Source: Haemophilus parainfluenzae
GTDB lineage: Bacteria > Pseudomonadota > Gammaproteobacteria > Enterobacterales > Pasteurellaceae
Length of the DNA: 64,000 nucleotides
Direction of reading: 5' to 3'
Assembly: GCA_916050345.1 (NCBI GenBank)
Contig: CAJZKN010000005.1
Coordinates: 20,529-84,528 of the forward strand
This document shows positions 8,204 to 61,608 of the stretch, one piece after another (position 1 is the stretch's first letter; every line of letters begins with the position of its first letter). The notes below the pieces were generated by a model that saw only the letters and a program-made list of their open reading frames with translations, was not told the DNA's origin and made no database searches. Position numbers and translations under genes: made by a program.

Positions 8204-9760
8204 CTAGTTTCTAAAAAATAGTGGGTGAATGAAAAATGTTTTATTTAGATCTGTTATATCCAACTCAGGTTTTTCAAATGATGAATAAATTATAACACTA
8301 TCGGATTTCTTAATGCCAATAACTCCAATAATAAACCAGACCTTAATAAGTTCTTTAAAATTCAAAATTATATTTTCATGAGATTTATCTGTAGAAGTGC
8401 TTTTGTCTCTATCCATTAAAAAATCCTGAATTTTCTCTATGTCTTTTTTATCAAGTAATTCCTCTATAAACTCTTGTGATTTTAAAAATGATAATGAGTC
8501 AATATAATCCATAACGCATGGATATATACTTGCCCATTCTTGAACAAGAGCTCCTTTTCGTGAAGAGTAAAATTTTTCTTCAGCCGCAATTACAATATCT
8601 TCATTTAATTCAATTTCACCATCACATTCAGAAAAACAATTATTTACAAAATTTATTGCATCTCTTGGTCTTAGCATTGTTCTATCAATAATGTAATCAA
8701 TTGCTCTTTCTCCTTTAACTGTAAAACCAAAAATATCATTAAATTTTGTATTTGCAGATCCTGAATATTGATTTTTTATAAGATGATTTATACGGATATC
8801 TAAAATTGAAATTATTTCCTTTTTATTCCATGATATAGGATAGATTAGAGATTGATCCTTTTCATGTTGTCTTAAGCTATTTTTATAAATACCCATGAGA
8901 ATATCTGTTCTAATGGCAATCAGAATTTTAACAGATTTAATATCTAATAATTCTCTAAATGCATCTAATAGCGCATTAATAAAGTCATATCTTATAGAGC
9001 TTGAACTTAACCATGATTTATCAAGGTCATCTATACTAATAACAATTTTTATTTGTTTTTGATTGGATAACTCTGATTTTAGTAATTTAATTAGTTCTTT
9101 CTGTTTAGCTAATAATTCCTTACTAACATAGCTAGAGGTTTCTTTTTGTACTTTTTGTTGGGTTTCTTCTGAAAGTTTTCCACTGACTCCAATAAAATCA
9201 TTCCCTAATTTACATGATAAGTCATCTTGTAATCTATTAGTTATTTCTGTAATAACATTACTATTAAAGAAATGATCCTTAAATTTTTCTAAATATTCAT
9301 CAGCGAGTTCTGGACGATAGTTTACTTTTTCTTTTCCCACTAAATTTTTAACAAAGTCAAAGAAACTATCGTAAGATTTTTTATATAAAATCTGTATTAC
9401 TTTTATAAGTAATACGTGTAGCCATAAGGACTTATAAAAAACTCGTAAGTCAATATCTTTCTCCATTAGGGTTGATATAAAAACATTATTTTGAATATGC
9501 TCAAAAACAGTATTTTCAGCTTCAATAGTTTCATGGTTACGAATATGTTCATCATTTAAAATTTGTTTAAGTAAGGCTGTTTTCCCACTGCCAGTTCTAC
9601 CAACAATAATTCTTCTAGTGAAGTCAGGGTTTTGTTCACTGTCATCAAAATTAACAATGCCTTTGAAAACCTCCGATTTGTAAAAGCAAGAGTCAAGAAA
9701 TGAGTCTGTTTCAGCATCTAACTTGCCAATTTCAATATTTTTTCTAAACTTATAGGCCAT
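8204..9760 (-). CDS. Orphan P-loop NTPase with KAP-family-like motif arrangement, in an AT-rich islet (candidate defence/Abi protein)
   Basis: 518 aa. Walker A GRTGSGKT is at res 54-61 (DNA 9578-9601). Walker-B-like IVISIDDLDKSW is at res 239-250 (DNA about 9011-9046). RPRDAINFVNN is at res 364-374. There is no signal peptide or clear TM segment. Codon usage is very AT-rich compared with the neighbours. Family assignment rests on motif recall, not a search. Confidence 0.5.
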   Translation of the reverse strand: MAYKFRKNIEIGKLDAETDSFLDSCFYKSEVFKGIVNFDDSEQNPDFTRRIIVGRTGSGKTALLKQILNDEHIRNHETIEAENTVFEHIQNNVFISTLMEKDIDLRVFYKSLWLHVLLIKVIQILYKKSYDSFFDFVKNLVGKEKVNYRPELADEYLEKFKDHFFNSNVITEITNRLQDDLSCKLGNDFIGVSGKLSEETQQKVQKETSSYVSKELLAKQKELIKLLKSELSNQKQIKIVISIDDLDKSWLSSSSIRYDFINALLDAFRELLDIKSVKILIAIRTDILMGIYKNSLRQHEKDQSLIYPISWNKKEIISILDIRINHLIKNQYSGSANTKFNDIFGFTVKGERAIDYIIDRTMLRPRDAINFVNNCFSECDGEIELNEDIVIAAEEKFYSSRKGALVQEWASIYPCVMDYIDSLSFLKSQEFIEELLDKKDIEKIQDFLMDRDKSTSTDKSHENIILNFKELIKVWFIIGVIGIKKSDSVIIYSSFEKPELDITDLNKTFFIHPLFFRN

Positions 9761-9848: not shown

Positions 9849-9864
9849 TGTGATCTATCTCAAA
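9849..9864. promoter_or_regulatory. CRP-like half-conserved site TGTGA-N6-TCAAA upstream of dcuC
   Basis: The sequence is tgtgatctatctcaaa, about 80 bp upstream of the dcuC ATG. The second half-site is imperfect. Confidence 0.25.
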
Positions 9865-9943: not shown

Positions 9944-11302
9944 ATGGATCTGATTATAGGTTTGATTGCCATTGTCTTGGTGGCATATTATATCGTGAAA
10001 GGCTATTCAGCGACTGGCGTGTTGATGTTCGGTGGCTTGGTCTTGTTATTCATTTCAGTACTGATGGGACATTCGATTTTACCAGAAGGAGTGAAAAGCA
10101 CCGGTTCCACCTATTTTGATATTTTAGAATATGTGAAATATCTACTCGGTAATCGTGGCGGCGGCTTAGGCTTGATGATTATGGTATTATGTGGTTTCTC
10201 CGTGTACATGACCCATCTTGGTGCGAATGATGTGGTGGTGAAATTGGTGTCAAAACCACTGAAAAACATCCGTTCACCTTATATTTTAATGGTATTTGCT
10301 TATTTCCTTGCATGTTTAATGTCTTTTGCTGTGTCATCTGCAACGGGTTTAGGCGTGTTATTAATGGCAACATTATTCCCTGTTATGGTAAACGTGGGGA
10401 TTTCACGTGGGGCTGCAGCGGCAATTTGTGCATCGCCAATTTCGATTATCCTTTCTCCAACATCGGGCGACGTGGTGCTTTCTGCTGAAATTTCAAAAAT
10501 TCCTTTAGGTGAGTTTGCCTTTGGCACCGCATTGCCGGTTTCGATTTTTGCGATTTTAGGAATTGCTGTCGCACACTTCTTCTGGCAGCGTTATTTGGAT
10601 AAAAAAGAAGGCGTGCAAGTAGAACGCATTAATGCAGATGAAATTAAAACCACTGCACCAAATTACTATGCGATTTTGCCATTATTACCAATTATCGGTG
10701 TGTTGATTTTTGACGGTAAATGGGGCTTACCAAATTTACACATCGTTACCGTGATGGTGCTTTGCTTTATCATTACTGCTGCGGTAGATTTCTTACGTAG
10801 CTTTAACGCGAAACAAACCTTCGATAATCTCGTGGTGGCATATCGCGGTATGGCAGATGCCTTTGCGGGCGTGGTAATGCTTTTAGTGGCGGCGGGTGTA
10901 TTTGCGCAAAGTTTAAGTACAATCGGCTTTATCACTAATTTAATCGATTCTGCACAATCCTTCGGCGGTTCAGCGTTCTTTATGATGTTAGTGCTTGCGG
11001 TGATTACCATTTTAGCCACCATGGCGACAGGTTCAGGTAATGCAGCGTTCTATGCTTTTGCAGAATTAATTCCGAAATTAGCAACACAAATGGACGTCAA
11101 CCCGGCTTTCTTAACCATTCCAATGTTACAAGCCTCTAACTTAGGTCGTGGTTTATCACCGGTTTCTGGTGTGGTTGTGGCGGTATCTGGTATGGGAAAA
11201 ATCTCACCATTTGAAATCGTAAAACGTATGTCTGTCCCAATGTTGGTTGGTTTTATTTGTGTGATTATCGGCACAGAAATCTTTGTTTCCGTTGCCGCCT
11301 AA
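9944..11302 (+). CDS. dcuC: Anaerobic C4-dicarboxylate carrier, DcuC family
   Basis: 452 aa. Close recalled similarity to E. coli DcuC throughout (IKGYSATGVL, FPVMVNVGISRGAAAAICASP, IPMLQASNLGR). Confidence 0.85.
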   Translation: MDLIIGLIAIVLVAYYIVKGYSATGVLMFGGLVLLFISVLMGHSILPEGVKSTGSTYFDILEYVKYLLGNRGGGLGLMIMVLCGFSVYMTHLGANDVVVKLVSKPLKNIRSPYILMVFAYFLACLMSFAVSSATGLGVLLMATLFPVMVNVGISRGAAAAICASPISIILSPTSGDVVLSAEISKIPLGEFAFGTALPVSIFAILGIAVAHFFWQRYLDKKEGVQVERINADEIKTTAPNYYAILPLLPIIGVLIFDGKWGLPNLHIVTVMVLCFIITAAVDFLRSFNAKQTFDNLVVAYRGMADAFAGVVMLLVAAGVFAQSLSTIGFITNLIDSAQSFGGSAFFMMLVLAVITILATMATGSGNAAFYAFAELIPKLATQMDVNPAFLTIPMLQASNLGRGLSPVSGVVVAVSGMGKISPFEIVKRMSVPMLVGFICVIIGTEIFVSVAA

Positions 11303-25682: not shown

Positions 25683-26750
<1,068 letters not shown>

Positions 26751-26758
26751 TCAGAATA

Positions 26759-26777
26759 GATAATGCAAATAATTCTC
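26759..26777. promoter_or_regulatory. Candidate Fur box (gataatgcaaataattctc, about 15/19 to GATAATGATAATCATTATC) in the hitA promoter
   Basis: Lies about 80 bp upstream of the hitA start, in the hitA/gshF divergent intergenic region. Confidence 0.35.
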
Positions 26778-40727: not shown

Positions 40728-43700
40728 TTATGCCTCCGCTTTCTCAATGTTTACCAAGAATGTTTTATATTCTGGTGTTTGAGTGACTGCTTCACCCCAA
40801 GATGGTGTTAAGGTGTTGGTGGAGAAACCACGGTTACCTTTACCATTTAAGGCTTTCATATTCCAGTGAATTGGAATACCCACGTGATGTACGGTACGTC
40901 CGTCGACTTCTAAGTCTTTCAAACGTTTTGTTACCACTGCAACGGCTTTAATGTAGCCACGGCGAGAAGTAATTTTCACCATATCACCTTTTTGGATGCC
41001 TTTTTCAGCTGCTAATTTCTCACCAATTTCCACGAATTGTTGTGGTTGGGCGATGATATTTAACGCAGATTGAGCAGTCCAACTGTGGAAGTGCTCGGTC
41101 AAACGATAAGTCGTTGCCACATAAGGGAAGTCTTTGTTTGAACCGATAAATTCACGGTCTTCTTTATAAATACGAACAGTCGGATCAGAGACGACACTTG
41201 GGTGTAGTGGGTTAGTGTCAATCGGACTTTCAATTGGTTCATAGTGCTCAGGTAATGGACCCGTTGTAATTTTATCTACAGCGAATAAACGACCTACACC
41301 TTCTGCAGACATAATGAATGGACCTGCATCAGAACCCGGTGGTTGTGTACCATAGTCAGCTACATCTAACCAGTTCCAGTTTTTACCGTTCCATTTGATT
41401 AATTGACGGTGTTTATCCCAAGGGTTACCGTTAATATCAAGTGAAGCACGGCTGTAAAGGATACGGCGGTTTGCTGGCCATGCGAAGCCCCAACCTAATG
41501 TACAACCTAAACCTGATGGGTCAGAGTTGTCACGGTTTGCGGTTTGGTTACCTTTTTCAGTCCATTGACCCACATAGATCCAGTTACCTGATGAAGTTGT
41601 ACCATCATCACGTAAATGAGCGAATCCACTGAGCAATTGACCTTTTTTATACATGACGTTGCCATCTGCATCGAGAAGATCAGCAAGTGCGTAACCGTTT
41701 AATTCTTTCGCTAATTCTACAGAACTTGGTGAATGCGGTTGAGCATAGTTCCAAGTCATCGCTTCGAAAGATTCGATACCACGACCACCTTCTTTTTGAT
41801 AAAGGTGATGCATTTCTTCACGAATCATAGAAAGAATTTCAACATCTGGTAACGCTTCACCTGGTTGGTCACAGCCTTTCCAGTGCCATTGAGCCCAACG
41901 ACCAGAGTTAGCAATAGAACCATCTTCTTCTGCGAAACAGGTGGTTGGTAAACGGAATACTTCAGTTTGAATATCTGCTGGATTCACATTGTTTGATTCA
42001 CCAAAGTTTTTCCAGAATTCAGAAGATTCAGTTTGAAGCGGATCCATCACGATTAAGAATTTCAATTTGCTCATACCTGCAACAGTTTTGTTTTTGTTCG
42101 GTAATGAGTTTAATACGTTGAAACCTTGTAAAATCCAACCGTTCAATTTGCCATCATTCATTAACTTAACATGAGTGATAGGGTCGTATAAGCGGTCTGC
42201 TTTAGGTAAGAAATCGAAACCCCAACCATTTTCTTTGGTTGCTTTATCACCATAGAACGTTTTCATCATACTCACGAAGAATTTCGAGGTATTACGATAG
42301 TAGTTTGTTTGGTTTGGTACGATATCTTTTGGCGTAATCGAATTAATGTATTGTTCGTAAGACGTATCTTTGTCATTCGGTAAACGCATATAACCCGGTA
42401 AAGACATCGGCAATAAGCCCATATCTGTTGTACCTTGTACGTTTGAGTGTCCACGTAACGCATTAATACCGCCACCTGGCATACCAATATTACCTAAGAG
42501 TAATTGGATCATTGCCATTGAACGAATATTTTGAGTACCGATTGTGTGCTCAGTAAAGCCTAACGCATATAAGTGCGTCATAGTTTTATTCGGTGCAGAG
42601 GTTTTACCAATTTCTTCACAGATTTGTAAGAAGAGTTTTTGTTTTACACCTGTGATACGTTCAACCATTTCTGGGGTATAACGAGAAACGTGATCTTTCA
42701 AGATATTAATCACACAACGTGGATCTTGTAAGGTCATATCACGTTTAACAAAACCATTCTCATCGAATTGGTAATTCCATTTTGATTTATCGTAAGCATG
42801 TTTTTCTTCATCAAAACCTACGAATAAACCATCTTCGAATTTGAAGCCTTCATCAATTAAGTATGAAGCATTGGTATAGTGTTTAACGTATTCGTGTTGA
42901 ATTTGGTTAGTTTCCAATAAGTAACGGATCACACCCATTAAGAATGCGATATCAGAACCGGAACGAATTGGAGCATGAAGGTCAGCTACAGAAGCTGTAC
43001 GGTTAAAGCGAGGGTCAACCACGATGATTTTCGCACCGTTTTTCTTCGCTTCGATCGCCCAACGGAAGCCAACAGGGTGAGCTTCAGCAGGGTTACCACC
43101 TTGAACAAGAATAAGATTGGCATTTTTGATGTCAACCCAGTTATTTGTCATGGCACCGCGACCAAATGATGGAGCAAGACTTGCTACCGTTGGTCCGTGT
43201 CAAGTATTCGCTTGGTTACACATCGGTACCATGCCCAACATTCGAACCCATTTATGAGTAAGAAGTGCGGCCTCGTTGCTCATGGCGGAGGCGGTCATAA
43301 TACCTGTAGAGGTCCAACGGTTAACAGTTTTGCCACTTGCATCTTTTTCAACAAAGTTAGCATCACGGTCATCTTTTAATAAACGAGAAATGCGTTTGAT
43401 TGCTTCTTCCCAAGAAAGACGAACCCATTTGTCAGAACCCGGTGCACGATATTCAGGGTATAAAGCACGGCTTTCACTATTAATATAGTCTAATGCGCCA
43501 GCACCTTTAGGACATAACGCACCACGGCTTACCGGATGGTCTGGGTCACCTTCAAGGTGGAATAATTTAGAACGGGTATTGGTACCGGTGTGGCTACTTA
43601 AAGCATCGTAAGGTTTGCCTGTGCTATATAACAACATACCACAGCTCACTGCACAATATGTACAGGTGTTACGGGATTCAAAAGCCCGTAATAATTTGTA

Positions 43701-43817
43701 CTCACGTGGTGCCGCTAAAACAGATGATGGTGCAAAGCCCAACATTGCCGCAGACGTCCCCGCCATACCACCTGCACAGATCTTAAAGAACTTACGTCTA
43801 GAGACCTGCATAATCAC
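40728..43817 (-). CDS. fdxG: Formate dehydrogenase alpha subunit, selenocysteine-containing (in-frame TGA at 43200-43202 on the minus strand); Tat signal peptide
   Basis: The ORF track splits it into 205-aa and 807-aa pieces. Reading across the junction gives [24 protein letters not shown], matching the Sec region of E. coli FdnG/FdoG. N-terminus is SRRKFFK (twin-arginine). Confidence 0.85.
43150..43199 (-). promoter_or_regulatory. SECIS-like stem-loop immediately 3' of the fdxG UGA codon
   Basis: mRNA sense strand cacggaccaacgGUAGCAAGUCUUGCUcc forms a stem of at least 6 bp (AGCAAG/CUUGCU), starting about 12 nt after the UGA. Confidence 0.45.
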
Positions 43818-44953: not shown

Positions 44954-46000
44954 TTATTCCTTCGGTGATTTGCTATCTAAGAGGACTTCAGAGACCCAAC
45001 GTTGAGTCAGGCGTTTGCCTTCTTGATCCGTACCAAATTTCATAAAATCAATATCCACTAGTTTTAATTTGCTAGCCGGTAGGAAACTTGGTGCAGGTTC
45101 TGCATGGATATTGGTTGGAAGTTGATAAGAGTCTGATTCTTTCCAAGGAATTTCTTGGGCTTCTTTGCTTAGCACGAAATCCATAAACAGTTTGGCATTA
45201 TCAAGGTTTCTCGATCCTTTAATGATGCTTGCCCCGCCTAAAGAATAGCCTACGCCTTCGCATGGTAAAATGCCTTCAACTGGCGCACCATTTTTCTTCT
45301 CACGCGGGTAAACCAGCATAAAACCTAAATCAATCGCCACGGTACCGTTAGCCAAATAGTTGCTCGCAAGACCTGTTTTGGTATGTTGCATGAGATTGGG
45401 TTCTAATTTTTTCAAATAATCGAAAGCTTTTTCTTCTCCCCATAATGTGGAAAAAGTACTGATAAGTGAGTAGCCCGTGCCGGAAACACGGGGATCTGGA
45501 TATTGAATTTGCCCTTGATATTCAGGTTTTAGTAGATCTGCATAACATTTTGGCGCAGGAATATTCAATTCTTTCAATTTTTTAGTATTCACCCCAATGC
45601 CTAGTTCCATTAAGTAAATCACAGAGGTGAAATTACCGCGTTGATCCATTAAAGATTTAAACTGCGGCATGATATCTTTTTGTAATGGAGAACGATAGGA
45701 TTCAAGCAAGCCTAACTCTGCGGCTTGAAGATGGGGTTCAATGGTGCCACCAAACCAGAAATCAGCTTGTGGGTTTTCTTTTTCCACTTTAATTTTGCCT
45801 AACACTACACCAGTACTATTACGCACAAATTGTGCATCTACATTGTATTTTTTACTAAAGGCTTGCGTGACTTTTTCGCATACAACGTTTTGCACGCTGC
45901 AATAGACGGTAAGTTTTCCTTCAGCCTGTGCGTGAGAAGTGTACGCGAGGGCGGTTAGGGCTGAAAGTGCGGTTAATTTTAGCGTTGTTTTTATTGACAT
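44954..46000 (-). CDS. Orphan AfuA-family periplasmic substrate-binding protein (third paralogue)
   Basis: 348 aa with a signal peptide ending AQA. About 45% identical by eye to the two afuA genes at 56151 and 57329 (shared LTVYCS...C, NPQAD.WFGG, PKC, PCEG.GY). Confidence 0.7.
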   Translation of the reverse strand: MSIKTTLKLTALSALTALAYTSHAQAEGKLTVYCSVQNVVCEKVTQAFSKKYNVDAQFVRNSTGVVLGKIKVEKENPQADFWFGGTIEPHLQAAELGLLESYRSPLQKDIMPQFKSLMDQRGNFTSVIYLMELGIGVNTKKLKELNIPAPKCYADLLKPEYQGQIQYPDPRVSGTGYSLISTFSTLWGEEKAFDYLKKLEPNLMQHTKTGLASNYLANGTVAIDLGFMLVYPREKKNGAPVEGILPCEGVGYSLGGASIIKGSRNLDNAKLFMDFVLSKEAQEIPWKESDSYQLPTNIHAEPAPSFLPASKLKLVDIDFMKFGTDQEGKRLTQRWVSEVLLDSKSPKE

Positions 46001-46146
46001 TGTGTCTCCTTTAACTTCGTCAATATTTAGTAATTATTTGATATTGCTAATATAAAGGGACGGAGTAAATTTGTAAATATCAGGTTGTTTAAAAATATAA
46101 TTCCCACTATAATCCCTGTAAATTTAACCAGATTAAAATAAGAGCA

Positions 46147-51339: not shown

Positions 51340-52315
51340 TGTCGCACAAGAGAATGCTCCATTGCTCAATGCTATCGGGCTGAAAAAATATTATCCTGTG
51401 AAAAAAGGGATGTTTGCAAAAACACAGCAAGTGAAAGCGTTAGATGGGGTGTCTTTTTCTTTAGAACGTGGTAAAACCCTTGCCGTAGTGGGGGAATCTG
51501 GTTGTGGTAAATCCACACTTGGTCGTCTTTTAACCATGATAGAAGAACCGACTGAAGGTGAATTGTATTACAACGGGCAAAATTTCTTAGTCAATGATCA
51601 TGAAACGAAAGCATTGCGCCGTCAGAAAATCCAAATCGTGTTTCAAAATCCTTATGCCTCACTGAATCCGCGTAAGAAAATCGGCACGATTTTGGAAGAG
51701 CCCTTAGTCATTAATACCAATCTATCGGCAAAAGAGCGTAAAGAAAAAGTATTGTCCATGATGGCAAAAGTGGGGTTGCGTGCAGAGTTTTATAATCGCT
51801 ATCCACATATGTTTTCAGGTGGGCAACGTCAGCGTATCGCGATTGCTCGTGGTTTAATGCTTAATCCTGATGTGGTTGTAGCGGATGAACCCGTTTCTGC
51901 GTTAGACGTATCCGTTCGTGCGCAAGTGCTGAATTTGATGATGGATTTGCAAGCTGAGCTTGGTTTATCTTACGTATTTATTTCCCATGATCTTTCGGTA
52001 GTTGAGCATATTGCTGATGAGGTGATGGTGATGTATTTAGGTCGCTGTGTTGAAATGGGCACAAAAACACAAATCTTTAATAATCCTCAGCACCCTTATA
52101 CACAAGCGTTGCTTTCGGCGACACCGAGATTATCGCCTGAATTACGTCGTCAGCGGATTAAATTAAAGGGTGAATTACCAAGCCCGATTAATCCACCAAA
52201 GGGGTGTGCATTTAATCCACGTTGCTGGAAAGCGACCGATAAATGTCGAAATGAACAGCCTAAATTGGAAAAATATCCTGATGGTAAGTTAATTGCTTGT
52301 TTCCATCTCGATTAG
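51332..52315 (+). CDS. dppF: Dipeptide/heme ABC transporter ATPase DppF
   Basis: Start [28 protein letters not shown] aligns to the E. coli DppF N-terminus. It overlaps the dppD stop by 8 nt (translational coupling). Confidence 0.85.
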
Positions 52316-52326
52316 AAAGAGAAAAG

Positions 52327-52367
52327 AAAATGACCGCACTTGTTGATTAAGTGCGGTCATTTTTTTA
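52327..52367. terminator. Inverted USS pair (aaaatgaccgcactt...aagtgcggtcattttttt); bidirectional between dppF and sotB
   Basis: Seen in the sequence. Confidence 0.6.
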
Positions 52368-53543
52368 GAGGTTTTGAGTACGATAGCGGAAATTGAAGAA
52401 GACAAAGATGCCAAGTGCAATCATCGCTAATGCTGCCCCCGTAAAGCCAATATATTCAAGACCGACATGACGAGCGATTTGGTTACCAAACAGTGCACCT
52501 GCACCGATACCCGCATTGAAAATACCGGAATAAATAGCACTTGCTACATCCGTTGCGTCAGGAGCAAGTTGTAGTACACGCATTTGTAACGCCAGTCCGA
52601 TACAAGAGATGCCAATCCCCCAAATAAAAGCAAGAGTAAACATCGTGGCGGTATAACTTGCAGAAACAAGCATAAAGGCTAAAGAGACTGCCAATAAAAT
52701 CATTGCCGTACTGATAAATTGGGTTGGACCAAAACGGTATAAGCGGTTAAAGATCACACTTGCGGTAATGCCAGACACCCCAAATACCAACAAAATTATT
52801 GTCGCAAGATTTGGATCGAGTTCGCCGATTTGAACCATAAAGGGTTCAATGTAGGTATAAGCGGTAAAGTGCGCAGAAACAATGATTACCGTTGTGGCAT
52901 AAAGTCCAATCAGTAATGGACGTTTCGCTAAAATTGGCAGACTAGATAACGAGCCTGCATTTTTACTTGGTAGATTTGGCAATAAACGCATAATGAATAG
53001 CATCACAACCAAAGCTAATGCGGCAATGATTGCAAAAGTAATACGCCAACCAACTAATTGACCGACTAAACGGCCTAATGGTAAGCCTAAAATAGTTGCA
53101 AGGGATGTCCCGATAGCGAGCATACCAATGGCTTGTGTTTTCTTATTCTTCGGTGCCACACGCATCACTAATGACGCAGTAATTGCCCAGAAGAGTGAAT
53201 GCGCTACCGCAATACACATACGAGCAATGAGAAGAATCCAATAATTCCACGCAATGACTGAGATAATATGGCCGATGATAAAAATCACAAAAAGTTTCAG
53301 CAATAAGCCTTTACGTTCCATATCACCTGTCGCGAGCATGGCGGGTAAAGACATAATCATAACCGTCCAAGCATAAACGGTCATCATTAAACCCACATCG
53401 GAGCTTTGCATATCAAAACTTTGTCCGATGTCAGTGAGTAACGCAACTGGCACAAATTCCGTGGTGTTAAAAATAAAAGCGGCGCAAGCCATGATGACTA
53501 CGCGCCAATATTGGGTTCTTTCTGCTTTCTGATAAAATGACAT
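52365..53543 (-). CDS. sotB: MFS sugar efflux transporter SotB/YdeA family
   Basis: 392 aa, 12 TM. Extended recalled similarity to E. coli SotB (AAFIFNTTEFVPV, LAPDATDVA, SGIFN.GIGAGAL). Confidence 0.8.
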   Translation of the reverse strand: MSFYQKAERTQYWRVVIMACAAFIFNTTEFVPVALLTDIGQSFDMQSSDVGLMMTVYAWTVMIMSLPAMLATGDMERKGLLLKLFVIFIIGHIISVIAWNYWILLIARMCIAVAHSLFWAITASLVMRVAPKNKKTQAIGMLAIGTSLATILGLPLGRLVGQLVGWRITFAIIAALALVVMLFIMRLLPNLPSKNAGSLSSLPILAKRPLLIGLYATTVIIVSAHFTAYTYIEPFMVQIGELDPNLATIILLVFGVSGITASVIFNRLYRFGPTQFISTAMILLAVSLAFMLVSASYTATMFTLAFIWGIGISCIGLALQMRVLQLAPDATDVASAIYSGIFNAGIGAGALFGNQIARHVGLEYIGFTGAALAMIALGIFVFFNFRYRTQNL

Positions 53544-56060: not shown

Positions 56061-56076
56061 TGTGAAGTAGTTCACG
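56061..56076. promoter_or_regulatory. Canonical CRP site TGTGA-N6-TCACG about 75 bp upstream of afuA
   Basis: The sequence is tgtgaagtagttcacg (9/10 to TGTGA-N6-TCACA). Confidence 0.5.
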
Positions 56077-56150
56077 GAATTTTTTTTCGTTTTCGCTTAC
56101 GATGTGCTCGTTTTTATTATTTCATCAGTGTTATTTATGAGGAGTGTACG

Positions 56151-57191
56151 ATGAAAATGAATAAAATTTCTCTCTCCATTTCAACCGCACTTTTAGCAGC
56201 AGGCTTCATGACATCATCAGCCGTTAATGCTCAAGGGCGTTTAGTGGTGTATTGTAGTGCGACTAACATTCTTTGTGAAACGACAACCAAAGCCTTTGGC
56301 GAAAAATATGATGTGAAAACTTCATTCATTCGCAACGGTTCAGGCAGTACGTTTGCAAAAGTTGAAGCGGAAAAAAATAACCCTCAAGCAGACGTTTGGT
56401 TTGGTGGTACATTCGACCCTCAAGCTCAAGCGGCAGAGTTGGGTTTAATCGAACCTTATAAATCTAAACACATTGATGAAATTGTTGAACGTTTCCGTGA
56501 TCCAGCGAAAACCAAAGGACATTATGTATCCGCTATTTACATGGGTATCTTAGGTTTTGGTGTGAATACCGAGCGTTTAGCAAAATTAGGTATTAAAGAA
56601 GTACCAAAATGCTGGAAAGATTTAACTGATCCTCGCTTAAAAGGCGAAGTGCAAATTGCTGACCCACAAAGTGCAGGTACAGCATACACTGCGTTGGCTA
56701 CTTTCGTTCAACTTTGGGGCGAAGAAAAAGCCTTTGATTTCTTAAAAGCATTACATCCAAACGTATCGCAATACACCAAATCAGGTGTCACTCCATCTCG
56801 TAATGCGGCACGTGGTGAAACTGCGGTAGGTATCGGTTTCTTACACGATTACGCACTTGAAAAACGTCAAGGTGCGCCGTTGGAATTAGTGGTACCTTGT
56901 GAAGGTACGGGCTACGAGTTAGGTGGCGTAAGTATCTTAAAAGGTGCGCGTAACATCGATAACGCAAAATTATTCGTGGATTGGGCATTATCTAAAGAAG
57001 GTCAAGAGTTAGCGTGGAAACAAGGTGACTCTTTACAAATCTTAACTAACACCACAGCGGAACAATCACCAACTGCGTTTGATCCAAATAAACTTAACCT
57101 CATCAATTATGACTTTGAAAAATACGGTGCAACCGAACAACGCAAAGCCTTAATTGAAAAATGGGTTCAAGACGTTAAATTAGCGAAATAA
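56151..57191 (+). CDS. afuA: AfuA-family periplasmic substrate-binding protein, copy 1
   Basis: 346 aa with a signal peptide ending VNA. Heads an afuA-afuA-afuB-afuC cluster. Confidence 0.75.
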   Translation: MKMNKISLSISTALLAAGFMTSSAVNAQGRLVVYCSATNILCETTTKAFGEKYDVKTSFIRNGSGSTFAKVEAEKNNPQADVWFGGTFDPQAQAAELGLIEPYKSKHIDEIVERFRDPAKTKGHYVSAIYMGILGFGVNTERLAKLGIKEVPKCWKDLTDPRLKGEVQIADPQSAGTAYTALATFVQLWGEEKAFDFLKALHPNVSQYTKSGVTPSRNAARGETAVGIGFLHDYALEKRQGAPLELVVPCEGTGYELGGVSILKGARNIDNAKLFVDWALSKEGQELAWKQGDSLQILTNTTAEQSPTAFDPNKLNLINYDFEKYGATEQRKALIEKWVQDVKLAK

Positions 57192-57196
57192 TGTTT

Positions 57197-57238
57197 AAAG
57201 TGCGGTTGAAAAACATGAGATTTTTTGACCGCACTTTT
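57197..57238. terminator. Inverted USS pair after afuA copy 1
   Basis: The sequence is aaagtgcggttgaaaaacatgagattttttgaccgcactttt, immediately after the stop codon. Confidence 0.55.
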
Positions 57239-57328
57239 ACCATTTTAGCCCCACTAGATAGATTTTTACGTGGGTTTCTACGATGAGCGTATTAGCTTAT
57301 CTTATTTTATAAACACAGGAGTGGACCA

Positions 57329-58366
57329 ATGAAAATGTCTAACGTTGCTTTAGCACTTTCTGGTGTTGTATTTGGTGGCGTGTTGCTAAGCTCTCACGCA
57401 TCTGCTGCAGAAGGTCGTTTAGTGGTTTATTGTAGTGCACAAAATACGATGTGCGAGCAAGAAACCATGGCTTTTGAGAAAAAATACGGAATCAAAACTA
57501 GTTTTATCCGTGGTGGTACAGGCACAATTTTAGCCAAAATTGATGCTGAGAAAGACAACCCTCAAGGGGATGTGTGGTATGGCGGTACGCTTGATCCGCA
57601 TTCTCAAGCGGGTGAAATGGGCTTACTTGAAGCGTATAAGTCACCAAATCTTGCACAAATTCCTGAACAGTTTAGAGACCCAGCTAAAATTAAAGGCAAC
57701 TATTCCTCCGCGATTTATCTCGGTGTATTAGGCTTCGGTATTAACCCAGAACGTTTGAAAAAACTCAATTTGCCGACACCAAAATGTTGGAAAGATCTAG
57801 CCGATCCTGCGTACCGTAATGAGATCCAAGCAGCTGATCCACAAAGTTCTGGAACAGGTTATACACAATTAGCCACCTATATCCAACTTTGGGGCGAGGA
57901 TGAAGCATTCAAATATCTCAAAGAACTCAATAAAAACGTTTCCCAATATACCAAATCCGGTAACACCGCAACCCGTAATACAGCGCGTGGTGAAACCGCA
58001 ATCGGAATTGGTTTTTTACATGAATATTCTTTAGAGAAAGCAAAAGGCGCACCAGTTGAATTAGTTGTTCCTTGCGAAGGTACAGGCTATGAAATTGGTG
58101 GCGTGAGCATTATTAAAGGTGCAAGAAACCTTGAAAATGCGAAATTATTTGTGGATTGGGCATTATCAAAAGAAGCGCAAGAGTTAACCTGGAAAAAAGG
58201 GGAAGCGTATTCTATTTTAACCAATAGCACCGCTGAGCAATCGCCTTATGCGCTCGATTTTAAATCCATCAATTTAATTAATTATGATTTTGACAAATAC
58301 GGCTCAAGTGATTTACGTAAACGTTTGATCACAAAATGGGTTGATGATGTTAAATTAGCAAAATAA
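57329..58366 (+). CDS. afuA: AfuA-family periplasmic substrate-binding protein, copy 2 (about 70% identical to copy 1)
   Basis: 345 aa with a signal peptide ending ASA. Tandem paralogue. Confidence 0.75.
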   Translation: MKMSNVALALSGVVFGGVLLSSHASAAEGRLVVYCSAQNTMCEQETMAFEKKYGIKTSFIRGGTGTILAKIDAEKDNPQGDVWYGGTLDPHSQAGEMGLLEAYKSPNLAQIPEQFRDPAKIKGNYSSAIYLGVLGFGINPERLKKLNLPTPKCWKDLADPAYRNEIQAADPQSSGTGYTQLATYIQLWGEDEAFKYLKELNKNVSQYTKSGNTATRNTARGETAIGIGFLHEYSLEKAKGAPVELVVPCEGTGYEIGGVSIIKGARNLENAKLFVDWALSKEAQELTWKKGEAYSILTNSTAEQSPYALDFKSINLINYDFDKYGSSDLRKRLITKWVDDVKLAK

Positions 58367-58378
58367 TGATGTATACAT

Positions 58379-58417
58379 AGCGAAATAATAGCTATTATAT
58401 TATTTCGCTTTTTTTCT
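58379..58417. terminator. AT-rich hairpin (agcgaaataatagctattatattatttcgct) plus T-run between afuA copy 2 and afuB
   Basis: Seen in the sequence. Probable attenuator setting SBP:permease stoichiometry. Confidence 0.5.
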
Positions 58418-58420
58418 TTT

Positions 58421-60490
58421 ATGCGAGGTTGTATGAACGCAAATAAACTTCCTATTATCCAATCCGCTAACTTTTGGATAATTCTTGCAGTGATTGCATT
58501 TCTTCTTCTGCCTTCCCACGCTTTAGATTATGGCTTGTTTGAAAGCACAAGCGATGAATACTTAGGTGCAATGGGTTGGTCTTCGTTAAATATTACGGCA
58601 TTATGGTTTTTACCGGTTATTTTATACGGATTGATGCCACTTCTTAAATTACCGAAGGATACGCAAGCGAAAGCTGAGCTGTATCTTATTGCTGCGGCGA
58701 CGTTGTTTATCTTTGTCAGTGCGACAATTTATAAAGTCAGCATGGGTTATTCTGTGATTGTATTAATCGCGAGTTTAACCGCATTGGCGACATTTTCCTT
58801 CGCCAAATTAAAAGTGATGCAAGGGGATAAATTTATTATTGCCTCTTTACTTTGCATTATCTTATTAATTTTCTTCTTCATCGTTTACCCAACATTGGCG
58901 ATCTTTGTATCCATGTTTTATGACGGTGATACCTTTGCACCACAACAAGTGATGCGAATTTTGACTCAAAGCTATATTGTTCGAGTTATTAGCAACTCGT
59001 TATTCTTATCTGGCTTTGTGGGTATCGTATCAACAATTTTCGGTTTAGCTTTTGCACTTTATACCACCCGTATTGCTCGTAGAACGGCATTTATTGGTAA
59101 AATTTTCTCTATTTTACCAATCGTCACACCGCCATTCGTTGTGGGTTTAGGGGTAACATTAATGCTTGGCCGTTCTGGTTATGTGACTGAGTTCTTAGCT
59201 TCAACATTTGGATTTGAGAACCATAACTGGTTATACGGCTTTAATGGGATTGCCATTGCACAGATTCTTGCTTTTGCGCCGATTTCATTCATGATTTTAG
59301 ATGGAGCATTAAAATCGGTTCACCCATCAATTGAAGAAGCCTCTTACACTTTACGTGCAAATCGTTACCAAACATTCTTCAATATTATTTTCCCATTATT
59401 GCGTCCAGCGTTGGCAAACTCGTTCTTAATCGTGTTTATCCAATCCTTAGCCGACTTTAGTAACCCATTAGTACTGGGCGGTAGCTTTGACGTCATCGCG
59501 ACACAAATCTACTTCTATATCGCAGGCTCACAATTAGATTATGCTTCAGCAAGTACTTTAGGTTCGATGCTTTTAATCTTCTCATTAGCCGTATTTATCA
59601 TCCAATATATTTGGATTGGTAACCGCTCTTATGTGACCGTCTCAGGCAAATCCTATCGTGGTGACGTACAAGATCTACCAACCGGCTTGAAATATACCAT
59701 CATTGGTATGCTTGGTTTCTGGGTACTCTTTAACTTAGCGTTATACGGCAGTATTTTCTACGGTAGTTTCACAGTGAACTGGGGCGTAGATTACACCTTA
59801 ACCTTGAAAAACTATGCGATGTTATTCGGACAAGGCTTAAGTGATGGGGCATGGCCATCATTGATTAATACCTTAATCTACGCAGGAATTGCCGCACCAT
59901 TGACTGCACTTTTCGGTTTATTAATTGCGTATATTGTGGTGCGTAAAGATTTCCAAGGTAAAAAATCTCTTGAGTTCTTAACCATGCTTTGTTTTGCGGT
60001 ACCAGGAACCGTTGCAGGGGTATCTTATATTTTAGCCTTTAACAATGCGCCACTTTACATTACGGGTACCAGCATTATCGTGATCATTTCAATGGTGATG
60101 CGTGATTTACCAATCGGTATGCGTGCAGCGATTGCTGGTCTTGGACAATTAGATAAATCACTCGATGAAGCGTCGCTTTCTTTAAAAGGTAGCTCATGGA
60201 AAACATTATGGTTTATCGTTTTACCATTGTTAAAACCAGCGTTACTTTCTGCATTGGTCACCAGCTTCGTTCGTGCGATGACTACCGTGAGTGCGATTAT
60301 CTTCTTAGTCACCGCTGATACACGTGTGGCAACAGCCTATATTTTAAACCGTGTAGAAGATGGTGAATATGGTGTTGCTATCGCATACGGTTCGATTTTA
60401 ATCATCGTGATGATGGCCATTATTTTATTCTTTGACTGGATTGTGGGTGATACCCGAATTTCCCGTTCTAAAGCGAAAAAAATGAATTAA
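58421..60490 (+). CDS. afuB: AfuB/FbpB-type ABC permease (two fused 6-TM permease domains)
   Basis: 689 aa with two EAA-loop regions. The start may be the ATG at 58433. Confidence 0.8.
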   Translation: MRGCMNANKLPIIQSANFWIILAVIAFLLLPSHALDYGLFESTSDEYLGAMGWSSLNITALWFLPVILYGLMPLLKLPKDTQAKAELYLIAAATLFIFVSATIYKVSMGYSVIVLIASLTALATFSFAKLKVMQGDKFIIASLLCIILLIFFFIVYPTLAIFVSMFYDGDTFAPQQVMRILTQSYIVRVISNSLFLSGFVGIVSTIFGLAFALYTTRIARRTAFIGKIFSILPIVTPPFVVGLGVTLMLGRSGYVTEFLASTFGFENHNWLYGFNGIAIAQILAFAPISFMILDGALKSVHPSIEEASYTLRANRYQTFFNIIFPLLRPALANSFLIVFIQSLADFSNPLVLGGSFDVIATQIYFYIAGSQLDYASASTLGSMLLIFSLAVFIIQYIWIGNRSYVTVSGKSYRGDVQDLPTGLKYTIIGMLGFWVLFNLALYGSIFYGSFTVNWGVDYTLTLKNYAMLFGQGLSDGAWPSLINTLIYAGIAAPLTALFGLLIAYIVVRKDFQGKKSLEFLTMLCFAVPGTVAGVSYILAFNNAPLYITGTSIIVIISMVMRDLPIGMRAAIAGLGQLDKSLDEASLSLKGSSWKTLWFIVLPLLKPALLSALVTSFVRAMTTVSAIIFLVTADTRVATAYILNRVEDGEYGVAIAYGSILIIVMMAIILFFDWIVGDTRISRSKAKKMN

Positions 60491-60514
60491 CTCGTTAAGT
60501 TGTAGGTAAATATT

Positions 60515-61567
60515 ATGAGTAATAATGATTTCTTAGTATTAAAAAATATCACCAAATCTTTTGGTAAATCCACAGTCATTGATAATTTAGATTTAACCAT
60601 TAAACGTGGCACCATGGTGACCTTATTAGGTCCATCTGGTTGTGGTAAAACCACTGTGTTACGTTTAGTTGCAGGATTAGAAAACCCAACTTCAGGTCAA
60701 ATTTTTATTGATGGTGAAGATGTAACCAAATCGTCTATTCAAAATCGTGATATTTGTATCGTATTCCAATCTTATGCATTGTTCCCGCATATGAGTATCG
60801 GTGATAACGTCGGCTATGGTTTACGTATGCAAGGCGTGGGTAAAGAAGAACGTGCTAAACGTGTAAAAGAAGCGTTAGAATTGGTTGACTTAGCGGGTTT
60901 TGAAGATCGTTTCGTGGATCAAATTTCAGGTGGTCAACAACAACGTGTGGCATTAGCGCGTGCGTTAGTATTAAAGCCAAAAGTATTGCTTTTTGATGAA
61001 CCATTAAGTAACTTGGATGCAAACTTACGTCGTTCTATGCGTGAAAAAATCCGTGAATTACAACAAAGTTTAGGTATTACTTCACTTTATGTGACTCACG
61101 ACCAAACCGAAGCATTTGCGGTGTCTGATGAAGTTATCGTCATGAATAAAGGTAAAATCATGCAAAAAGCACCAGCAAAAGAGCTTTATTTGCGTCCAAA
61201 TTCTTTATTCCTTGCAAACTTCATGGGCGAATCGAGCATCTTTGAAGGTAAATTAGAAAATGGCACCATTGATGTGAATGGCTACAAATTGCCATTAAGT
61301 AATGCGGCGCAATTCAATTTACCGGATGGTGAATGCTTAGTGGGCGTACGTCCTGAAGCGATTTACTTAAAAGCAGAAGGTGAGGCAGCACAACAATGTG
61401 AAATCAAGAGTGCGGTCTATATGGGGAACCACTGGGAAGTGGTGGCAATCTGGGCAGGCAAAGAATTGCTCATTAACACCAAACCAGAAGACTTCAATGC
61501 TGATCTCAAACAAGCTTATGTGAATTTCTCTGAACAAGGTATTTTCTTGTTGAAGAAAGAGAAATAA
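60515..61567 (+). CDS. afuC: AfuC-type ABC ATPase with C-terminal TOBE domain
   Basis: Walker [34 protein letters not shown]. Confidence 0.8.
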
Positions 61568-61576
61568 TATCAACTT

Positions 61577-61608
61577 AAAGGCGTATGGAAGCATACGCCT
61601 TTTCTTTT
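61577..61608. terminator. Hairpin aaaggcgtatggaagcatacgcctttt plus T-run after afuC
   Basis: Perfect 9-bp GC-rich stem. Confidence 0.65.

Follow-up and report, generated by a model that had tools for sequence, protein, structure and literature searches.

A predicted CRP-controlled sugar-phosphate importer with diverged binding-protein paralogues in Haemophilus parainfluenzae

The afu locus of Haemophilus parainfluenzae, found in a 64,000-nucleotide stretch of contig CAJZKN010000005.1 (the window), likely encodes an ABC importer of phosphorylated metabolites under a class II type CRP promoter; a second binding protein, A2, probably takes a different ligand, and an unlinked third, A3, most likely one of thiamine type. 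Judged by its conserved residues, the operon is a sugar-phosphate system and not a ferric importer, and the main proposal of an earlier sequence-only reading of this DNA is correct on that point. Both the sugar-phosphate identity and the CRP control have already been published for orthologues (Sit 2015; Black 2020). The A2 and A3 clades are each conserved and seem uncharacterised.

Locus and ligand residues

The operon afuA1-afuA2-afuB-afuC is accompanied by an orphan paralogue 10 kb away (Table 1), and the gene calls agree with the earlier description of tandem substrate-binding protein (SBP) genes upstream of afuB-afuC plus a distant third. Identities had been put at about 70% for A1 and A2 and about 45% for A3; the measured A1/A2 value is lower, at 65%, while A1/A3, at 47%, is close to the estimate. 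The order A1-A2-afuB-afuC is kept in all sufficiently long loci, from at least 10 Pasteurellaceae genera plus Cardiobacterium. AfuB consists of two BPD_transp-type halves (NCBIfam), and its true start is probably the second ATG, which follows the SD GAGG; among the relatives compared, both this start and the SD are conserved, GCGAGGTTGTATGAACGC is kept, and the upstream ATG is absent in Rodentibacter. AfuC scores 659 bits against the NCBIfam model PRK11432 (cut-off 496).

Table 1. Features of the afu locus and of the orphan paralogue A3 (positions in the window)
Feature	Position	Strand	Description
CRP (CRP-N type) site	56061-56076	+	TGTGAAGTAGTTCACG; core 9/10; predicted
-10 hexamer	56098-56103	+	TACGAT; 21 nt past CRP site; predicted TSS near 56110
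afuA1 (A1)	56151-57191	+	canonical AfuA sugar-phosphate binding protein, Sec signal peptide
hairpin 1	57197-57237	+	inverted USS pair 57198-57206 / 57228-57236; dG -21.7 kcal/mol, z -6.0
afuA2 (A2)	57329-58366	+	conserved paralogue clade, altered ligand shell
hairpin 2 and T-run	58379-58420 (hairpin 58379-58409)	+	dG -13.8, z -3.0; directly before afuB SD
afuB	ORF opens 58421, probable start 58433, end 60490	+	fused two-domain ABC permease
afuC	60515-61567	+	ABC ATPase
operon terminator	61577-61602	+	11-bp GC-rich stem and T-run; dG -16.3, z -5.6 (predicted)
A3	44954-46000	-	orphan AfuA/P5PA-family binding protein, between fdhD and uvrD
A3 promoter	46049-46077	-	TTTACA-N17-TATATT; predicted; kept in relatives

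A1 matches the crystallised AfuA of Actinobacillus pleuropneumoniae (ApAfuA, PDB 4r72) with E 2.5e-176 and 76.9% identity; A2 and A3 stand at 68.7% and 50.3%. The ligands of AfuA are G6P, F6P and S7P, the substitutions H205A, D206A and E229A each end binding by ApAfuA, and the H205/D206/E229 motif serves to define homologues (Sit 2015). A1 keeps S37, T150, Y103, H205, D206, E229 and Q269. With ligand positions aligned, its signature is STGSSYGATASGVHDEQ against STGSSYGSTASGIHDEQ in ApAfuA, the sole ligand-contact change being outer-shell Ser148 to Ala. At the three motif positions A1 reads H-D-E, A2 reads H-E-E (short of a strict match) and A3 reads L-V-S; the phosphate-coordinating positions 37/150 are S/T in A1 and T/T in A2 and A3, as in P5PA. 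Once in the periplasm, A1 would catch G6P, F6P or S7P, like its A. pleuropneumoniae orthologue, and pass it to AfuB2C2.

Iron ligands of the FbpA type (His9, Glu57, Tyr195, Tyr196) are gone, with none of the four kept in A1-A3 in a profile alignment. The positions equivalent to H9, E57, Y195 and Y196 of FbpA/HitA hold T/Q11, G59, L/M204 and H/L205, and the HitA protein of the same window has all four ligands. A conserved Tyr-Tyr-His-Glu set is what the sequence-only reading had named as evidence against itself.

Promoter and transcript

The site TGTGA-N6-TCACG, scored against TGTGA-N6-TCACA, lies exactly where it had been reported as a near-consensus CRP site. The whole window has 6 sites with at most one mismatch, 2.3 being expected. 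More telling is conservation across Pasteurellaceae: of 76 orthologous promoters, 66 carry a site scoring 9/10 or better, compared with 0.66% of shuffled upstream regions, even though the bases of the N6 spacer and those flanking the site have diverged. A TAnnnT hexamer follows the CRP site after exactly 21 nt at 66 of the 76 loci, and because this gap to the predicted -10 hexamer is fixed, the site would be centred at -41.5 from the predicted TSS, as in a class II CRP promoter. On exhaustion of preferred carbon, cAMP-CRP would bind here and activate afu transcription. The H. influenzae gene afuA (HI0131) is classed as "CRP-N", with a logFC of -3.99, about 16-fold up in MIV starvation medium (Black 2020 Table D).

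The best Fur match at the afu promoter is 12/19, which is background for a consensus 19-mer match (as distinct from a species-specific matrix). The best in the whole window, 15/19 at 26759-26777, falls some 77 nt before the probable hitA start, bearing out the earlier remark that a Fur-like box is present at hitABC and missing at afu.

A hairpin had also been noted after each tandem SBP gene; both fold stably here and are putative attenuators. Hairpin 2, a 12-bp stem before a run of 7 T, is terminator-like. A hairpin between the last SBP gene and afuB occurs in most genera examined, with unrelated sequences, and those at the position of hairpin 2 come from Aggregatibacter, H. haemolyticus, Rodentibacter, Mesocricetibacter, P. 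bettyae, A. porcinus and Cardiobacterium. Hairpin 1, a stem of about 17 pairs, is followed by just four U; the region after A1 carries USS-pair or other hairpins in several genera and none in others. The uptake signal sequence (USS) AAGTGCGGT has 45 copies in the window, where 0.35 are expected. Hairpin 1 is possibly a partial terminator or an RNA stabiliser, or it may have no operon-specific role, since its U-tract is poor and gene ends in this DNA often carry USS pairs. Hairpins after A1 and A2 would cut read-through or shield the upstream mRNA, and the SBPs would then outnumber the membrane complex.

Two other accounts of the operon should be weighed. The historic annotation, a Fur- and iron-controlled ferric importer whose SBPs carry Fe3+, survives in the NCBIfam name for AfuC ("ferric ABC transporter ATP-binding protein") and agrees with the iron/heme-repressible expression of HI0126-HI0131 in two H. 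influenzae strains (Whitby 2009), which also counts against the regulation proposed here. That response may be indirect, because many iron/heme-repressible genes in the same study, such as pckA, mdh, aspA and ansB, are CRP-N genes. Reports on iron elsewhere conflict: afuABC of A. actinomycetemcomitans is down in iron-rich medium, and afuABC of A. pleuropneumoniae is reported not to be iron-regulated. Set against the lost iron ligands of all three SBPs, the G6P contacts from the crystal structures that A1 retains, and a promoter without the Fur box that hitA has, ferric import is very improbable. Another layout would make A1 monocistronic, ended by the USS hairpin, with CRP controlling A1 only and A2-afuB-afuC driven by a promoter of their own in the 137-nt spacer. 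The strength of hairpin 1 fits this, as does a TACGAT in the spacer resembling the -10 hexamer of A1. The proposal is nonetheless unlikely, as the spacer shows no promoter-like match and no CRP site (best 6/10), four U make a short tract for a terminator, and in other genera A1 and A2 lie 8-30 nt apart or their ORFs overlap, which implies that the two are co-transcribed.

The A2 and A3 paralogues

In an NJ tree A2 falls into a clade of its own, the sister of AfuA, which is old and always in tandem with A1 in the loci examined. Compared with AfuA its pocket carries T11Q, S37T, I186N and D206E, and this A2 also has S269. The residues Q11, T37, N186 and E206 occur in nearly all A2-clade proteins retrieved, the exceptions being two divergent copies, and among homologues with identity near 70% the AfuA signature returns. 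Given these fixed pocket changes, the ligand of A2 probably differs from that of A1. A2, encoded in the same operon, would dock on the same AfuBC with a remodelled pocket and so deliver another phospho-compound. A difference in specificity is thus plausible for A2. The sequence-only reading had proposed that three SBPs feeding one permease widen the substrate range.

That proposal fails for A3, in which H205L, D206V and E229S (signature SQSTVYMSTGTGLLVSQ) remove all three residues whose mutation ends sugar-phosphate binding, which makes A3 an unlikely sugar-phosphate binder. Its best PDB match is P5PA (6wce, E 1.2e-124, 56.6% identity), and it keeps Y103, T37 and T150, with a hydrophobic residue 105, as in P5PA. 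In an NJ tree the A3 clade is separate from P5PA and is its sister. A3 is an orphan in 11 of 11 loci examined, mostly adjoining uvrD, and a TPP riboswitch precedes the gene in 8 of the 11 (RF00059 above the gathering score in 6, the THI-box core in 2 more). Upstream of A3 in the window RF00059 finds no match even at E<=10; the riboswitch that follows the A3 promoter in relatives has been deleted in H. parainfluenzae, so A3 would here be expressed without TPP feedback. From the place of the clade beside P5PA, the TPP riboswitch of relatives and the lost sugar residues, the ligand is most likely a thiamine-related ring-CH2-O-phosphate compound (TMP, TPP or HMP-P). The thiamine link comes from the orthologues, the A3 of this genome being without a riboswitch. 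The permease that receives this ligand from A3 would be one with its genes at another locus, AfuBC or ThiPQ. P5PAB working with AfuC offers a precedent for component sharing (Pan 2021), but P5PA needs its own permease (Pan 2021), which makes it less plausible that AfuB accepts A3 or its ligand.

The paralogues, too, allow simpler readings. A2 might bind the same sugars as A1, since it retains H205 and E229 and the D206E change is a conservative one; with Y103 and the phosphate-binding residues also kept, and 69% identity to ApAfuA, it could be a redundant duplicate that raises dosage, with the specificity of A1 and no widening of the substrate range. This is doubtful, though less so than the other alternatives considered here: the four pocket changes are common to nearly the whole clade, in Pasteurellaceae and Cardiobacterium, while the A1 orthologues encoded beside them retain the AfuA signature; AfuA needs position 206 in order to bind (Sit 2015); both A1 and A2 are retained under purifying selection (dN/dS 0.03-0.05); and the third tandem SBP type of some genomes, with Q205, N206 and H269, fits diversification and not dosage. 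For A3, the match to 6wce and the shared pocket residues could mean a P5PA orthologue importing pyridoxal-5'-phosphate instead of a thiamine-related compound. P5PA is defined by at least 65% identity (Pan 2021) together with Tyr103, Thr149 and His203; A3 falls below that level, keeping the Tyr and Thr and having Leu for the His203 that contacts the pyridine hydroxyl (H/L/N within the clade), a position where H203A weakens the Kd about 300-fold. No p5pB adjoins A3 in the gene calls of the window, and the clade, apart from P5PA in the tree, has the TPP riboswitch and no B6 signal before 8 of its 11 members. Pyridoxal-5'-phosphate import by A3 is accordingly improbable, and a thiamine-related ligand remains the preferred reading.

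Comparison with known systems

Importers with one translocator and several SBPs are familiar: HisJ and ArgT/LAO share HisQMP, and there are multiple OppA paralogues. Such importers have their SBP genes at the front, with a hairpin behind them that promotes SBP excess. The afu case differs in that its ligands would be organophosphates and in that A3, a candidate partner, is encoded apart from the operon and is part of another regulon.

The nearest known system is AfuABC of A. pleuropneumoniae and Citrobacter rodentium (Sit 2015, PDB 4R72-4R75), which has the same family, the A-B-C order, a fused permease and one ATPase, and does not handle iron. To this the present locus adds A2, in the operon and with a remodelled pocket, and a conserved class II type CRP site, while no UhpABC/FusKR-type sensor adjoins it. 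HI0131 afuA is listed in the H. influenzae CRP-N regulon (Redfield 2005; Black 2020), and promoters of the H. haemolyticus group, the nearest H. influenzae relatives sampled, share site and spacing; the published lists label afuA a "ferric" transporter, and for H. parainfluenzae the evidence is that of orthologues.

The nearest solved relative of A3 is P5PA of the P5PAB system of A. pleuropneumoniae (Pan 2021, PDB 6WCE), whose ring-CH2-O-phosphate pocket is kept in Tyr103, the phosphate-binding Thr and Ser, and the hydrophobic residue 105. A3 is 57% identical to P5PA and lacks both His203 and an adjoining permease, and its clade has a TPP riboswitch in place of a p5pAB(C) operon. TbpA-ThiPQ likewise has a periplasmic cluster-D binding protein controlled by a TPP riboswitch, and such a pair lies near the Lonepinella orthologue of A3; A3 itself, at 57 bits against the thiamine-binding-protein model TIGR01254 (cut-off 93), is far nearer to AfuA and P5PA.

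Identity and control of the afu operon

The sequence-only reading located the genes correctly (see the table): A1 and A2, tandem afuA binding-protein genes 5' of afuB (fused permease) and afuC (ATPase; together AfuBC), and A3, an orphan paralogue by fdhD about 10 kb away. In protein alignment A1 and A2 are 65% identical and A1 and A3 47%, Sec-type signal peptides can be read from all three translations, and A2 is 100% identical in many H. parainfluenzae genomes. Strong PDB matches of A1, A2 and A3 are limited to three solved proteins: AfuA of A. pleuropneumoniae (4R72-75, with G6P, F6P or S7P in the site), 8X1A, which is named an "iron(III)" binding protein and carries the AfuA motif, and the PLP-binding P5PA (6WCE).

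Contact residues of AfuA (Sit 2015) and P5PA (Pan 2021) were mapped onto a sequence alignment of A1-A3 (AfuA numbering). A1, 76.9% identical to AfuA, keeps S37, T150, Y103, H205, D206, E229 and Q269, with only outer-shell S148 changed to Ala. A2 (68.7% to AfuA) shows T11Q, S37T, I186N, D206E and Q269S. A3 (56.6% to P5PA, 50% to AfuA) shows H205L, D206V and E229S, and at residue 105 it has Met, against Gly in AfuA and Leu in P5PA. In profile alignments, HitA of hitABC, the true ferric system in the window, carries the full set of four iron ligands (H9, E57, Y195, Y196), and A1-A3 have T/Q, G, L/M and H/L at these positions; the FbpA-type Tyr-Tyr-His-Glu ligands are therefore not conserved, and the sugar-phosphate reading stands.

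Coordinates of features in the window and in compared loci (L-numbers)
Feature	Sequence	Position	Strand	Remarks
A1 (afuA1)	window	56151-57191	+	ORF listing
A2 (afuA2)	window	57329-58366	+	ORF listing
afuB	window	58421/58433-60490	+	ORF opens at 58421; probable start 58433
afuC	window	60515-61567	+	ORF listing
A3, orphan	window	44954-46000	-	between fdhD and uvrD
CRP site TGTGAAGTAGTTCACG	window	56061-56076		basis: sequence
Fur-like box GATAATGCAAATAATTCTC	window	26759-26777		about 77 nt upstream of likely hitA start
Hairpin 1	window	57197-57237		-21.7 kcal/mol, z -6; inverted USS pair, weak U-tract
Hairpin 2	window	58379-58409		-13.8 kcal/mol, z -3; then seven T, ending 5 nt before afuB SD
Terminator	window	61577-61602		strong; 3' of afuC
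Inverted USS pairs (examples)	window	13405/13422, 34963/34977, 38066/38083, 39050/39066, 52333/52349, 63678/63707
Third tandem gene	L075	7067-8098
Third tandem gene	L078	7111-8142
Third tandem gene	L079	4965-5987
Third tandem gene	L080	4943-5965
Third tandem gene	L076	3367-4401
TPP riboswitch at A3 locus	L081	5852-5945
TPP riboswitch at A3 locus	L083	5852-5941
TPP riboswitch at A3 locus	L084	5768-5910
TPP riboswitch at A3 locus	L087	3814-3916
TPP riboswitch at A3 locus	L088	3854-3944
TPP riboswitch at A3 locus	L093	3857-3948

The CRP site proposed for the afu promoter is present. Alone it is a modest signal, since 6 sites with one mismatch or none occur in the window where 2.3 are expected, and cross-genome comparison is the stronger evidence for the predicted site. 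Upstream sequence was long enough in 76 orthologous loci. Of these, 66 match at least 9 of the 10 core positions, with divergence in the N6 spacer and the flanks, and a TAnnnT hexamer begins exactly 21 nt past the site in all 66; after shuffling, 9/10 is reached in only 0.66% of the upstream regions. The 21-nt gap predicts a class II CRP promoter arrangement, in which the site is centred on -41.5 and transcription would start at about 56110. The exceptions are mostly Cardiobacterium loci, without a CRP site; in L016, L019 and L037 the first gene is truncated or mis-called, and L072 has the site with a mis-called ORF start. No second CRP site or promoter was found in the A1-A2 spacer, and no CRP site upstream of A3. 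Elsewhere, a CRP-like intergenic site with 1 mismatch (TGTGATCTATCTCAAA, 9849-9864) lies between divergent ORFs 8204-9760 (-) and 9944-11302 (+).

The Fur 19-mer consensus has no match at three or fewer mismatches anywhere in the window. In the full ranking over 64 kb the best match (15/19) lies upstream of hitA, as had been suggested, and the best in the afu promoter (12/19) is at background level, so a Fur box at afu is rejected and the match is confirmed for hitA instead. The hitA ORF is listed from 26741; an ATG near 26682, after AAGGAG, is the likelier start.

With the A1 pocket kept, the iron ligands absent, a CRP site and no Fur match above background, the preference for sugar-phosphate over iron uptake was correct: afu is a CRP-controlled sugar-phosphate system and not a Fur-controlled iron system, as known already for orthologues, and this central claim is already published. 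CRP control agrees with H. influenzae RNA-seq data, which place HI0131 (afuA) in the "CRP-N" class, with log2 -3.99 on the move to starvation medium (Black 2020, Table D). It conflicts with a report that HI0126-HI0131 are iron/heme-repressible in two strains (Whitby 2009). Because pckA, mdh, aspA and ansB in that iron/heme set are also CRP-N genes, the two may reasonably be reconciled by an indirect effect of cAMP; afuABC of A. pleuropneumoniae is reported not to be iron-regulated. "Ferric" or "iron(III)" transporter is still a routine label for afu genes, and carries over into virulence and iron-regulon studies. The multiplicity of AfuA proteins has been noticed by annotators, but as iron proteins; two A2-clade proteins of Pasteurella multocida (P0223, P0227) are named "AfuA" and "AfuA-1 ferric iron-binding protein".

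Conservation of the tandem genes and their stem-loops

The order A1-A2-afuB-afuC is kept in every locus long enough to reveal it, in H. parainfluenzae, Aggregatibacter, the H. haemolyticus group, Rodentibacter, Mesocricetibacter, P. bettyae, Exercitatus, A. porcinus, Lonepinella and Cardiobacterium; at five loci, three binding-protein genes stand in tandem. Pocket signatures and a neighbor-joining (NJ) tree give clean clades: AfuA (H-D-E-Q), A2 (Q11, T37, N186, H-E-E), the third tandem type (Q-N-E-H), P5PA and A3. The extra tandem type has Q205, N206 and H269 in its pocket; Mesocricetibacter instead has two A2-type copies. The A2 signature occurs only at 73% or greater identity to A2, in Pasteurellaceae and Cardiobacteriaceae, and enterobacterial matches about 70% identical to A2 have the AfuA signature again. 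A dN/dS of 0.03-0.08 indicates strong purifying selection on A1, A2 and A3. The idea that three binding proteins widen the sugar-phosphate range needs correction: A2 may plausibly give AfuBC a second specificity, and A3 belongs to a different branch of the family, probably a vitamin-B1-related one. Cardiobacterium (L066, L068-L070, L073, L074) has the same operon with no CRP site, and its A2 nests inside the Pasteurellaceae A2 clade (NJ tree), which suggests that the operon may have been transferred between oral HACEK bacteria and its regulation rewired.

At least seven genera have a stem-loop, formed by unrelated sequences, between afuB and the binding-protein gene before it. Such recurrence would fit a conserved function that keeps the mRNA of the binding proteins in surplus. 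The Aggregatibacter stem-loop has no U-run, which makes stabilisation of the RNA as probable as attenuation. Across genera the spacing of A1 and A2 varies from ORF overlap through 8-30 nt up to 262 nt, and the overlapping or short spacers make it likely that co-transcription is ancestral. Searches of the afu leader, the spacers and the A3 leader for known RNAs and riboswitches gave only sub-threshold chance matches. The Hin-type uptake signal sequence (USS) AAGTGCGGT has 45 copies in the 64-kb window against 0.35 expected, many in close, terminator-like inverted pairs at gene ends; weak "Thr_leader" Rfam matches at 52270-52402 coincide with one such pair.

The orphan A3, its riboswitch and its partner

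A3-clade proteins are 61-97% identical to A3 and at most 63% to P5PA. Their genes are orphan in 11/11 loci examined (H. influenzae, A. succinogenes, Lonepinella, Basfia, P. bettyae, Rodentibacter and metagenomic contigs), and most adjoin uvrD, often as uvrD-A3-fdhD. The identity level, His203 and the gene context led us to reject A3 as a plain P5PA orthologue. The divergent uvrD/A3 intergenic region contains a LexA-box-like CTGG-N8-ACAG (46116-46131), kept as CTGTTTAAATTTACAG in H. influenzae and A. succinogenes and as CTGTTTATTTTTACAG in Basfia, which is probably the uvrD SOS box. Nearby, a SECIS element (RF01989, 76 bits, 43147-43205, -), also found in L081, L084, L092 and L093, joins ORFs 43200-43817 and 40728-43151, which therefore form a single selenocysteine formate dehydrogenase alpha subunit through UGA.

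In most Pasteurellaceae examined, a TPP riboswitch lies between a conserved promoter and the A3 orthologue. Six loci exceed the Rfam gathering threshold (59-68 bits against 54.3), and two more (L086, L092) have the THI-box core; the P5PA-clade control from A. actinomycetemcomitans lacks a riboswitch and comes with a permease and an ATPase of its own. The window retains the promoter (46049-46077), with about 130 nt of aptamer and expression platform missing, and 46001-46146 gives no TPP riboswitch match even at E<=10. L090 and L091, both metagenomic lineages, show the deletion too. In Lonepinella koalarum another TPP riboswitch (L084, 2388-2503, -) precedes a tbpA/thiP-like pair, about 3.5 kb from its A3 orthologue.

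Three pocket features point to a thiamine-related ring-CH2-O-phosphate rather than a sugar phosphate as the A3 ligand: the phosphate cradle and Tyr103 are retained, residue 105 is hydrophobic, and both sugar-binding carboxylates are lost, with position 205 varying within the clade. Among candidate permeases for A3, AfuBC comes nearest to a partner by homology, and ThiPQ is an alternative; P5PA requires a permease of its own, P5PB (Pan 2021). A wider scheme, which we offer tentatively and consider rather unlikely, would make AfuBC a general organophosphate import hub in Pasteurellaceae, fed by several binding proteins whose ligands belong to unrelated classes and which answer to separate signals: A1 for sugar phosphates under CRP, A2 for another phospho-compound, and A3 for a thiamine-related phosphate (TMP, TPP or HMP-P) under a TPP riboswitch in most genera, riboswitch-free in H. 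parainfluenzae.

In the literature searched, no paper was found on the A2 clade or on a TPP riboswitch with an AfuA-type protein; on HI0131, on afuA genes in tandem or on riboswitches of AfuA-type proteins, the search gave only Whitby 2009 and Black 2020. The A2 and A3 ligands would reveal which host-derived phosphorylated metabolites or vitamins these mucosal commensals and pathogens scavenge, and would tell if a single permease handles chemically different cargos. The AfuA family is split into at least five Pasteurellaceae clades (AfuA, A2, the third tandem type, P5PA and the TPP-riboswitch A3), and ligands are known for only two; if the hub scheme is true, A3 would be the first AfuA/P5PA-family binding protein specialised for a phosphorylated vitamer or precursor of B1.
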